Shown here one piece after another: positions 7,739 through 47,629 of a stretch of DNA of 64,000 nucleotides. The notes beneath the pieces are model-generated. The model saw only the letters and a list, made by a program, of their open reading frames with translations, did not search any database and had not been told where the DNA came from. The translations under genes were made by a program, and so were the position numbers. The first letter of the stretch is position 1; every line of letters begins with the position of its first letter. This DNA comes from Octopus vulgaris (Eukaryota), in assembly GCA_951406725.2 (NCBI GenBank), contig OX597814.1:148180001-148244000 (forward strand), written 5' to 3'.

Positions 7739-8752
7739 GCATCATGTGTATATACATATACATATATACATATACATACATAATGCAGGCATACATGCAC
7801 ACAAACATATACATACATACATACATATATACATACATACCTGAGTGCAGAGATGATACTTATATTTTTCTCTTCTGCTAGTTGTAGAAGATCTAAGTTT
7901 CTATTTTGAGTTTACGCGGTTGTTTTCCTGTGCGCCAACCAGTGAATACATATATGTATACATTTTAGTTATTTATACATTTTTTGAGAAAAAACATAAA
8001 ATGCAAGAATTGGGATTAGGATAAAGTACTAAAAATATTGTATTTTTGAAAGTTCAATTCAGGATTATCAAAAGGTTCCCAACCAGCTACATACGTGTTT
8101 ATGGATTTCACCTTTATCTCCAGAGCTTCACAAATTTTTCATAATTTCTCTAATATAATTATTTTATGTACACAGCAAGGCTTTTGTTTCTTATACTAAC
8201 ATCTCTGATCGAATTTTTGTTCGCAGCAAGGAAGCTTTAATGTCCGACGTCATTACAATTGAACTGGTTTCATACTCGTAAATATTGGATGGAACAATGA
8301 GAAAGCATTGTTCTGTCGAGTATTTACTTGCATCAACTATATATGTTGTTGACTTAAAGGTGTTAGTTGATTCTTAAATAAACTTTGAATGAAAACAATA
8401 TATTTTCCCATACACGATACATCTAAACCTAATTAAAATATGTTTTTTCTGTAACTCGAAGAAAAGGAAACTGATGCGCATATATGAGTATATCTCCATA
8501 AATATATATACGCACTTTGACAAGTGTTACGCTTATATATGTGTATGTGTGTAAGTGTGGGTGTATATGTAGAGAGATATATAGATAGCTAAATACACAG
8601 ATAGAGAGGTAGATGGAGACATAGAAAGATAGATAGAAAAGTGCATACATACATACATAAATATATCCATCCATACATACATTCATACATACACACACAT
8701 ATGAACAGTTACATACATACATACACACATACGTACGTACATATATACATAC

Positions 8753-10144: not shown

Positions 10145-10177
<33 letters not shown>

Positions 10178-10399
10178 TCAATATAGGGTGGCAAAAAAAA
10201 ATTTTGTAGAATTCTTTTGCCACCAGCGGCCTAGTGGGAAAAAATTAAATAGTCATAAACCATTTTTAAGTTCAACATCACAATCAAGGAACGGCCATAA
10301 TAGGCCATTCACCCACTAGAAATAACAGCCAAAAGCTTTAACCGCAAAATAACATTAATTCCGTAAACCAGGAGAAAATTGAAAAACATTTACCCTGTA

Positions 10400-10506
10400 A
10401 TTTCTTAGACGATGCACCGTTTCATCTACCGTTTAATGGTAAACTAACCTGATTAAATTAAATCAAGCCAATCCACCATAGGCCCTTAGACTCATCAGTA
10501 AGAAAT
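10400..10506 (-). ncRNA. Type I hammerhead ribozyme, copy 1
   Basis: Minus strand: stem I ATTTCTTA, core CTGATGA, stem II GTCTA..TAGAT, GAAA, stem III CGGTGCATCG, TC, stem I' TAAGAAAT. GUC triplet; predicted cut between 10408 and 10407. Confidence 0.88.
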
Positions 10507-10890
10507 AGCCAAGTCGGAACAGATATTTTTCACGAGGCATTCCTCTTGCTACATCGGCAATATCTGACCTAAAATTTTCAAATCGTCGCACTCGCGCCAA
10601 ATTTATCGGCAGCAAATAAATATAAGCCACCGATTCCATTACGGAACTAACCAGAAAATTCATAATTAATCAATATAGGGTGGCAAAAAAAATTTTGTAG
10701 AATTCTTTTGCCACCAGCGGCCTAGTGGGAAAAAATTAAATAGTCATAAACCATTTTTAAGTTCAACATCACAATCAAGGAACGGCCATAATAGGCCATT
10801 CACCCACTAGAAATAACAGCCAAAAGCTTTAACCGCAAAATAACATTAATTCCGTAAACCAGGAGAAAATTGAAAAACATTTACCCTGTA

Positions 10891-10997
10891 ATTTCTTAGA
10901 CGATGCACCGTTTCATCTACCGTTTAATGGTAAACTAACCTGATTAAATTAAATCAAGCCAATCCACCATAGGCCCTTAGACTCATCAGTAAGAAAT
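10891..10997 (-). ncRNA. Type I hammerhead ribozyme, copy 2
   Basis: Identical to copy 1 at +491; predicted cut between 10899 and 10898. The third copy (11382-11413) retains only the 3' half. Confidence 0.88.
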
Positions 10998-11409
10998 AGC
11001 CAAGTCGGAACAGATATTTTTCACGAGGCATTCCTCTTGCTACCTCGGCAATATCTGACCTAAAATTTTCAAATCGTCGCACTCGCGCCAAATTTATCGG
11101 CAGCAAATAAATATAAGCCACCGATTCCATTACGGAACTAACCAGAAAATTCATAATTAATCAATATAGGGTGGCAAAAAAAATTTTGTAGAATTCTTTT
11201 GCCACCAGCGGCCTAGTGGGAAAAAATTAAATAGTCATAAACCATTTTTAAGTTCAACATCACAATCAAGGAACGGCCATAATAGGCCATTCACCCACTA
11301 GAAATAACAGCCAAAAGCTTTAACCGCAAAATAACATTAATTCCGTAAACCAGGAGAAAATTGAAAAACATTTACCCTGTAATTTCTTAGACGATGCACC
11401 GTTTCATCT

Positions 11410-11460
<51 letters not shown>

Positions 11461-28713: not shown

Positions 28714-29353
28714 TTAAAATCACAATAAGGGTGAAAAAATTGAATATTAATTAATAACATCAATTTAAAACACCAAGTGGTCTAGCGTAAAAAAACTGTG
28801 ATACATTGAAAATTATTAATACAAGCAATAAGAGAGGGACCACATGTGGTCACTCTAACGCTAGAAATAGATCCGCAAAGGGAGTCCACCACTAAAGAAT
28901 TGTTCTCAAGCAATAATTCAACACGCCAAGAAATGTAAGCGGGCAGGACAAATGAAAAGTAACGAAAAAAGAGATTAACTCTATATAATTGTTTCATCGC
29001 TAATAGATTGTGTAATTTTACTTACAAATCATTTTCGAGTCATCGGTAGAGTATATCAAAAATATAATTTGCTGAACCGCACGCCAAAATCCATACGAAG
29101 CCGAGCAAAGGCGAACGGCACAGCCAATTATACTTGCAGTTACGTTCAAATATCCTCATTTCTGGCGCGCTGAAAATACCGGATGTAAATACCACCCCAG
29201 TAATTTACTGCCGGTTTGAGAGCATATTAATTTATAATTAAAATCACAATAATTAAAGTTGAATTAATGCTTGAATTCTTTAGTGGTAGATTCCCTTTGC
29301 GGATCTATTTCTAGCGTTAGAGTGACCACATGTGGTCCCTCTTATTGCTTGTA
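28714..29353 (-). mobile_element. HHR-bearing 524-bp unit plus inverted segment (Penelope-pLTR/retrozyme-like)
   Basis: TTAAAATCACAATAA recurs at 28714 and 29238; 29258-29353 is an inverted copy of 28820-28922; (TA)n on both flanks. Confidence 0.75.
28978..29052 (-). ncRNA. Type I hammerhead ribozyme, slightly degenerate
   Basis: Minus strand: ACTCTA, CCGATGA (one core change), (C)TCG..CGA(T) with inner hairpin, GAAA, CAATTA, TA, TAGAGT. Confidence 0.7.
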
Positions 29354-46382: not shown

Positions 46383-46475
46383 TATTTCTTCCTGAAGAGA
46401 AAGACACAATATGGTCTCATTATTCAATCGGAATTTGGTAAATTGTGCCTTTCGAAACACGTGTAGAATGAAATA
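46383..46475 (+). ncRNA. Type I hammerhead ribozyme with intact core, inside a ~260-bp element (46268-46527)
   Basis: TATTTCTTC, CTGAAGA, GAAAG(ACACAAT..ATTGTGC)CTTTC, GAAA, CACGTG, TA, GAATGAAATA; predicted cut after 46465. Confidence 0.85.
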
Positions 46476-47085: not shown

Positions 47086-47629
47086 TGAGAGAGTTGGTAT
47101 GTGAAAGCACGTGGTTGGATATATAAAAGACAAAAAAGAATGAAAAAAACTACAGAAGGCTTGTGTTATTTGGTTAAAGCATATATTTAAATCGTTATGT
47201 TAGAAAAATGCTATTAAATTTTGCGTATAGTAACATAGTTTTTGGAGAAATAACCGGTTTCGTATTTTTTTTTGAAATTTCTAAAATTTCTTTACCTATA
47301 TCGTGTCATGTCTTCGCTATGTTGTGAAATATGGAGTTCCAAGCAGGGGAAGGTAATCAGGGATTTTTCCGTTATAAGAGAGAGAATAAAAAATGTTGGG
47401 AATGACTAGGCGTGATTAATTTAACATGATTTGGTTTAGAAGGAATAGAATGTTACAAGTGGTTAGGTTTTGCTTTAAATCTTTTTCAATGTGGGGTGGT
47501 TTCCTTATTTAATCTAACTTGTGTTGGTGTCCCAATGGTACATTGATAGAATGGAAAGATTAAAAATATATATAATTATATACATTAATATATATCGATA
47601 TATACACATATAATGCTGTATGATACTGA

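Follow-up and report, generated by a model that had tools for sequence, protein, structure and literature searches.

Hammerhead retroelements and a 491-bp octopus repeat

Among the described systems, the non-LTR retrozymes of animals are close to the repeat reported here, sharing with it, in the main texts of the two descriptions (PMC7229834; 10.64898/2026.07.22.740005), a non-coding tandem organization with one type I hammerhead per unit, a low GC content, thousands of dispersed copies and the co-occurrence of Penelope-like elements. The unit of 491 bp falls within the 51-972 bp range given in the main text of the preprint of Li, Clavereau and Pollet 2026 (10.64898/2026.07.22.740005), but exceeds the 150-450 bp of Cervera and de la Pena 2020 (PMC7229834). 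In the main texts compared, the stem II of published retrozymes is a 4-bp helix with a small loop and its contacts are the canonical ones between loops 1 and 2, whereas the octopus motif has a stem II of 68 nt and a predicted pseudoknot. For Xenopus retrozyme dimers, no cleavage was reported in 8 of 9.

The hammerheads of Penelope-like pseudo-LTRs, as presented in the main texts (PMC4209133; PMC11167929; PMC8557442), are likewise of type I, with a palindromic short stem III and a helix II larger than usual, and the elements that carry them have two fixed 3' ends, inverted 5'-truncated arms and AT-rich targets, as does the octopus repeat. The published helix II has 6-8 bp, whereas the stem II region of the octopus motif spans 68 nt, and the octopus unit has no ORF. 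A Penelope hammerhead is described as having needed protein and as having itself been dispensable in vitro (PMC11167929, main text).

The architecture of the arm itself has a mirror counterpart in the atypical type III hammerheads of toad and termite HDV-like RNAs (PMC7936874, main text), in which the enlarged helix is also made up of a short stem, an internal loop and a capping hairpin, and a conserved GC-rich 4-mer of the internal loop pairs with the opposite arm, as is predicted here. In those RNAs it is helix I that is enlarged (5-bp stem), GCCR pairs with YGGC in loop II and the cap has approximately 20 nt, whereas in the octopus motif, of type I and in a retrozyme, helix II is enlarged, the predicted partner is the 5' flank of the open stem I and the cap has 44 nt. 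Pseudoknots are present in approximately 40% of hammerheads according to the main text of Perreault et al. 2011 (PMC3088659), where a Watson-Crick pseudoknot replaces the loop-loop contacts of stems I and II, as is predicted here; the stem II partner in the octopus motif differs in being an internal loop beneath a long cap, and the 2011 study excluded repetitive type I motifs from some of its analysis. Searches of the open-access main-text literature yielded no account of this latch architecture with helix II as the enlarged arm, nor any of a natural long stem II or of a cephalopod retrozyme. The novelty is, then, a structural variant (the long helix II arm and the predicted latch) in a retrozyme class that is already known.

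The window, i.e., the whole stretch of 64,000 nucleotides of Octopus vulgaris DNA that was analysed, contains on its minus strand an array (10170-11413) in which the 491-bp unit is repeated 2.5 times head to tail, with (TA)n tracts on either side, and which is 5'-truncated at 11413 and terminates near 10170, at one of the two fixed 3' ends of the family. The type I hammerhead motif, together with its 5' flank, is found twice, at 10400-10510 and, in an identical copy 491 bp away, at 10891-11001, both by motif match and in Rfam. A search of the genome (2.8 Gb, 227 contigs) with the pattern of the subfamily of the window returned 426 matches and no control matches, while a pattern with A at position 10.1 returned 2043 (2 in the control) and a third, which includes GGCY, returned 361 (none in the control). 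As these three patterns hardly overlap, the resulting figure of approximately 2,800 motif copies is a lower bound.

The mapped insertions have the anatomy of retroposition, with two inverted arms in 93 of 163 regions, and 3' ends that cluster at two positions of the unit followed by (TA)n; these positions are approximately 105 nt apart, compared with 30-40 in the main-text descriptions of Penelope-like elements. The 5' ends are scattered along the unit, with no clear enrichment where the cut is predicted (3 of 272 fall on the three positions closest to it), and the arrays reach at least 17 units at some loci. The copies differ from the consensus of their own subfamily by 0.3-1.4%, and, given that this is true of many lineages which are up to 21% apart, these lineages seem to be concurrently active, in a sample in which the search patterns favour intact copies. 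Rooting the subfamilies by age was abandoned, all being equally young.

The array of the window has two or more successive units that each contain a whole type I hammerhead, and the family has dispersed young copies of retroposed anatomy. No stop-free frame of at least 110 aa from the 491-bp unit is present among the frames listed, and the unit is without the ORF with reverse transcriptase (RT) and GIY-YIG of an autonomous Penelope-like element. By the working definition, the 491-bp repeat is a non-LTR retrozyme, with Penelope-type insertion anatomy.

The motif, its long arm and related hammerheads

In copy 1, read on the minus strand, the hammerhead has an intact core and comprises CUGANGA, GAAA, an NUH triplet, a three-way junction and an open stem I. 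The 5' strand of stem I (10499-10506) forms 8 bp with 10400-10407, with two-sided changes in 4 of the 6 tested pairs, and is followed by the CUGANGA box (10492-10498), in which N7 is the sole variable position among the subfamilies, the core itself having belonged to the search patterns. Stem II spans 68 nt (10424-10491), beginning with the 5' strand of a basal stem (10487-10491; 5 bp with 10424-10428, two-sided changes in 3 of 5 pairs) and continuing with a 7x7 internal loop (5' strand 10480-10486, with GGCC at 10481-10484; opposite strand 10429-10435) and the capping hairpin as its outer part. The GAAAC box, a short stem III with a palindromic loop and the GUC triplet occupy 10408-10423, and the cut is predicted, from the hammerhead consensus, between 10408 and 10407. 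Position 10.1-11.1 departs from the usual G-C, being G10.1·U11.1 in the copy of the window, while the other subfamilies have A10.1 opposite U or C (A10.1·C11.1 in 5 of 21 alignment rows).

The Rfam model Hammerhead_1 (RF00163) aligns to both copies at 22 bits, below its gathering score of 34, which is attributed to the long stem II and reflects a detection limit rather than a defining biological trait. The remark of the preliminary description that such motifs would be easy to miss with compact hammerhead models was therefore borne out. In an Rfam scan of the whole window, the best 150 of the 224 rows were driven by microsatellites, and a hammerhead was not among the rows listed. With the internal loop likely latching onto the stem I arm, an RNA with this long-armed hammerhead can probably still cut itself.

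The capping hairpin (10436-10479), established by folding and by the comparison of copies, forms 19 consecutive pairs in 44 nt, six of which are G·U (pairs 6, 7, 9, 11, 12 and 14), as had been described. Its minus-strand fold reaches -21.7 kcal/mol (z -8.7), a stability equalled by none of 200 shuffles, whereas on the plus strand, where just 13 of the 19 positions pair, the value is -5.3 kcal/mol (z -1.7), equalled by 17 of 200. When the whole unit is folded as a circle, the hairpin has a probability of 0.92-0.99, and basal stem II one of 0.02-0.98. The further idea that the arm was an insert in a compact stem II gained no support, as only one short-stem-II copy was found genome-wide, which is decayed, the arm having been lost in that copy alone.

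The unbroken 19 pairs are confined to the subfamily of the window and a single near relation, together 69 of 195 loci. Pair 5 (10475/10440) is mismatched in 127 of 197 locus-states, 126 of them with A·A, U·U or A·G and one with C·A, and the hairpin in its conserved form thus has 4 bp below a 1x1 loop and 14 bp above it. Of the six G·U pairs, five (6, 9, 11, 12 and 14) have Watson-Crick states elsewhere among the lineages, where pairs 1, 10 and 13 in turn become G·U; pair 9 is found as U·G, U-A and C-G, and pair 7 alone remains G·U (157 of 158 loci). The apical 5 bp and the 6-nt loop (10450-10465) are constant in all shared haplotypes.

Two other roles considered for the hairpin were rejected: a start site of reverse transcription, with none of 270 insertion 3' ends falling within it, and a stall site, suggested by the array of the window beginning 4 nt beyond it, 5' ends not being enriched there. 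An AUUAAA hexamer at 10432-10437 (minus strand) spans the base of the hairpin and the internal loop, 24 nt ahead of the predicted cut, and is followed downstream by a U-rich tract; a successful subfamily with 14 loci is without the hexamer, which argues against the hexamer being required. Finally, a single copy at locus L109 (G000:C1:90903917) has insertions in both arms of the hairpin, in a region that also carries a different hammerhead motif with a long stem II.

Long stem II arms had also been reported at five other positions of the window, of which one was confirmed. The hammerhead motif at 46383 (plus strand, 46384-46473) is real, having a stem II of 55 nt and a score of 10 (random windows above 6: 0 of 60), and belongs to a second young repeat family with at least 54 matches (40 scored of 1337 candidates). 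The opposite strand gives the better fold of its stem II (-12.5 vs -9.8), and hence the argument on strand from G·U pairs is not general. The site at 28978 (minus strand) is doubtful, looking like a decayed motif with one core mismatch, a 6-bp stem I and a score of 3, within the background. At 8256, 47244 and 53048, motif scoring gave nothing above background, and the sole genome match of 8256 (1 of 1) was itself.

Three of the 25 loci of the 46383 family (L346, L352 and L354) run upstream into a common ORF of at least 300 aa with no Pfam match, the end of which we take, by eye, to resemble that of a GIY-YIG nuclease. An older, longer hammerhead repeat family (L212, L251-L270; single-copy, 77-85% identity, 379 candidates) matches the 491-bp unit at 63% identity over 130 nt (E 3e-4); its stem II measures 60 nt and resembles that of the young unit at the apex, with no evident pseudoknot, and no ORF was seen in the approximately 1 kb (about 950 bp) upstream.

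A possible source of enzyme is a young, two-armed, TA-flanked Penelope-like element (L276:3125-6990, within G000:C1:63840000-63849000), with open RT and GIY-YIG-like frames (the GIY-YIG match being weak, E 0.045) and two 3' ends approximately 41 nt apart; 40 of 2071 candidates match it almost identically. In the 3' region of the element lies a hammerhead-like motif whose core is of the U3/A8 kind and whose stem II is short, identical in 22 of 23 copies; hammerhead cores with U3-A8 have been published. The interval at approximately 47250-47275 of the window (minus strand) resembles, by eye, the 3' half of this motif. A copy of the retrozyme directly abuts the element, and no sequence match between the 491-bp unit and the element was found besides this adjoining repeat copy. 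The element is a candidate helper for the retrozyme, and a candidate only.

Pairing under selection and its rival explanations

In the preliminary description, the G·U pairs of this one sequence were taken as an independent indication of selection on the RNA of the ribozyme strand. While the conclusion stands on the diverged subfamilies, the argument does not, as a single sequence with G·U at six of six sites (approximately p=0.03, two-sided, assuming strand-symmetric transitions) is weak evidence for selection, and the 426 copies of the subfamily are, by descent, one observation. Covariation within this subfamily was uninformative, 54 of 68 copies being identical, and diverged subfamilies were collected instead. 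A pattern that excluded the subfamily of the window and retained G10.1 gave seven matches, five indel variants and two unrelated. The diverged set comprises 17 subfamilies with at least two loci, up to 21% apart, sampled by pattern and best matches at approximately 200 loci, mostly on contigs C1-C4. For the hairpin, 486 indel-free copies from 195 loci were retained (15 of 501 were set aside for indels), with 61 haplotypes, 14 of which are common to at least two loci.

Changes between shared haplotypes have passed through retroposition, and they serve as the test set against private changes, seen at a single locus, in a contrast that compares present-day states. Among the shared changes, 13 of 16 keep pairing and three break or form it, with one further change from mismatch to mismatch, whereas only 22 of 54 private changes keep pairing and 32 break it (Fisher p=0.009); when pair 5 is removed, the contrast becomes 13:1 vs 22:31 (p=0.0006). 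The neutral expectation of pair-keeping, derived from private mutation rates, is 0.32-0.38. Nearly all of the pair-keeping changes in the hairpin are one-sided swaps of G·U to Watson-Crick, and an A·C at pair 12 in one four-locus lineage counts against kept pairing.

Covariation across genomic copies, scored as two-sided changes against the commonest pair in a 21-row alignment, gave a divided answer, being compensatory in stems I, basal II and III (8 of 34 pairs, supporting all three helices) and absent from the hairpin (0 of 19). For the motif as a whole, 96.2% of 712 cells are paired, a value matched by none of 500 shuffles and compared with 27-43% in slid controls, and RNAalifold recovers the identical fold unprompted. 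Contigs from other organisms have structure-keeping changes at N7, at the cleavage triplet and from A-U to G-C in the basal stem, together with the exchange of the loop III palindrome for another palindrome and of G·U for A-U at pair 6. Selection on the fold of the ribozyme strand is thus well supported by these comparisons of sequence, whereas they do not support selection on the G·U pairs in themselves.

The same pairing might be the neutral product of a fold-back in a repeat that spreads as a DNA satellite, inherited by descent. The low divergence of the copies within subfamilies (0.3-1.4%) and the arrays of at least 17 units would fit such a history, which is nonetheless largely refuted by the contrast of shared and private changes, and which would also have to accommodate private single-unit changes that are strand-symmetric and pair-breaking and dispersed two-armed insertions with fixed 3' ends; it can hardly be credited. 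The strand asymmetry could also reflect mutation and not only selection, if A-to-I editing of the arm in its double-stranded form had left the G·U pairs behind, reverse transcription having copied them into DNA. Four of the five variable G·U pairs do alternate with A-U or U-A, at 10491, 10474 and 10430 the subfamily of the window carries G and almost every other one A, and changes present in all units of one locus are more often A>G than T>C (23 vs 12, p=0.005), compared with 20 vs 44 for single-unit changes. This excess is, however, absent in 37 held-out regions (5 vs 4, p=0.5) and falls to 7 vs 5 (p=0.25) under a strict filter, while no clustered edits were seen, the subfamilies differ about as often in A/G as in C/T columns (46 vs 41, p=0.83), the G·U pairs also swap with G-C and C-G (pairs 9, 12 and 13), and selection on pairing predicts the same A>G bias. 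Editing as the origin of the G·U pairs is accordingly held to be improbable, and its signal is a lead, no more.

The arm may, on the other hand, have been selected for the life cycle of the RNA (the stability of circles, or a handle for a protein of the helper element or of the host) and not for catalysis, with the complementarity of flank and internal loop due to chance or to other pairing. This would agree with the apex, whose 5 pairs and loop contain none of the 17 shared changes compared with 13 of 58 private ones (p=0.03), with 0 of 16 apical columns variable vs 28% elsewhere, as well as with the similar apex and 60-nt stem II of the older family, in which no pseudoknot is evident, with the extensive self-pairing of retrozyme circles and with the non-significant pseudoknot control described below. 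The apex belonged, however, to one search pattern and some script filters, the unit has three further invariant runs of 18-20 nt, and the lack of insertion 3' ends in the hairpin removes one such role, the start of reverse transcription. As a full alternative it is regarded as doubtful; for the apex alone, it is compatible with the preferred explanation, and the constant apex probably forms another element, recognised by its sequence, for instance as a loop that binds protein.

The predicted latch and its meaning

The explanation preferred here, with moderate confidence, is a long stem II whose pairing has been kept across lineages and whose outer hairpin likely acts as a rigid cap closing an internal loop, the GGCY of which is predicted to pair with the flank of stem I. 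Several of the observations above speak against it, namely the hairpin's lack of two-sided changes, the departure from G-C at 10.1-11.1, the 5' ends scattered without clear enrichment at the cut site, the uncertain basal stem II of the circular folds, and the published Xenopus and Penelope results. The four bases immediately 5' of the 7-8-bp stem I read RGCY (GGCU at 10507-10510 of the minus strand), and the 5' strand of the internal loop holds GGCY seven positions above the core, at 10481-10484 in the window. All haplotypes seen at two or more loci retain four of four pairs between flank and loop, and four compatible combinations (GGCU/GGCC 216, AGCU/GGCU 6, GGCC/GGCU 5 and GGCC/GGCC 4) account for 231 of the 256 haplotype-locus counts; GGCY was included in the pattern with 361 matches and in one more, and was absent from those with 426 and 2043. 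The pairs were altered in three lineages, always compatibly, and on both sides in one of them (AGCU with GGCU), while a fifth pair (G-C or G·U) is possible in 50 of 256. Both motifs are near-palindromic and could pair with other partners. With a single two-sided event, the shuffle control was not significant (93 of 500), and the pseudoknot, a likely latch of the internal loop onto the stem I arm by these 4 bp, therefore stays a prediction.

If so, the pairing of GGCY with RGCY would supply the contact of stem I with stem II that fast hammerheads need, beneath the rigid cap that the hairpin would form. Tandem transcripts would then self-cleave into 491-nt units, with the palindromic loop III possibly helping in dimers, and the units may circularise before the enzyme of a Penelope-like element copies them back into (TA)n sites, so that every round of copying would filter for RNAs that fold. 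The G·U pairs would be tolerated wobble states, drifting to and from Watson-Crick, rather than a selected pattern. A broader combination, in which the pseudoknot latch is joined by an apex that docks a Penelope-type RT or a host protein and by editing that feeds heritable A>G changes, is considered unlikely; if true, A-to-I editing would shape retroelement lineages.

With at least approximately 2,800 copies in one genome below the threshold of the standard model, hammerheads with long arms probably escape many counts. The coexisting subfamilies differ by up to 21% and are a natural mutagenesis of one ribozyme, and the four flank-loop pairs, with their natural rescue variants, make for a sharp and cheap prediction. 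As a defined substrate without coding capacity, the unit also lends itself to the question of what is recognised by Penelope-type enzymes, and bears on whether hammerhead cleavage matters for Penelope-type mobility.
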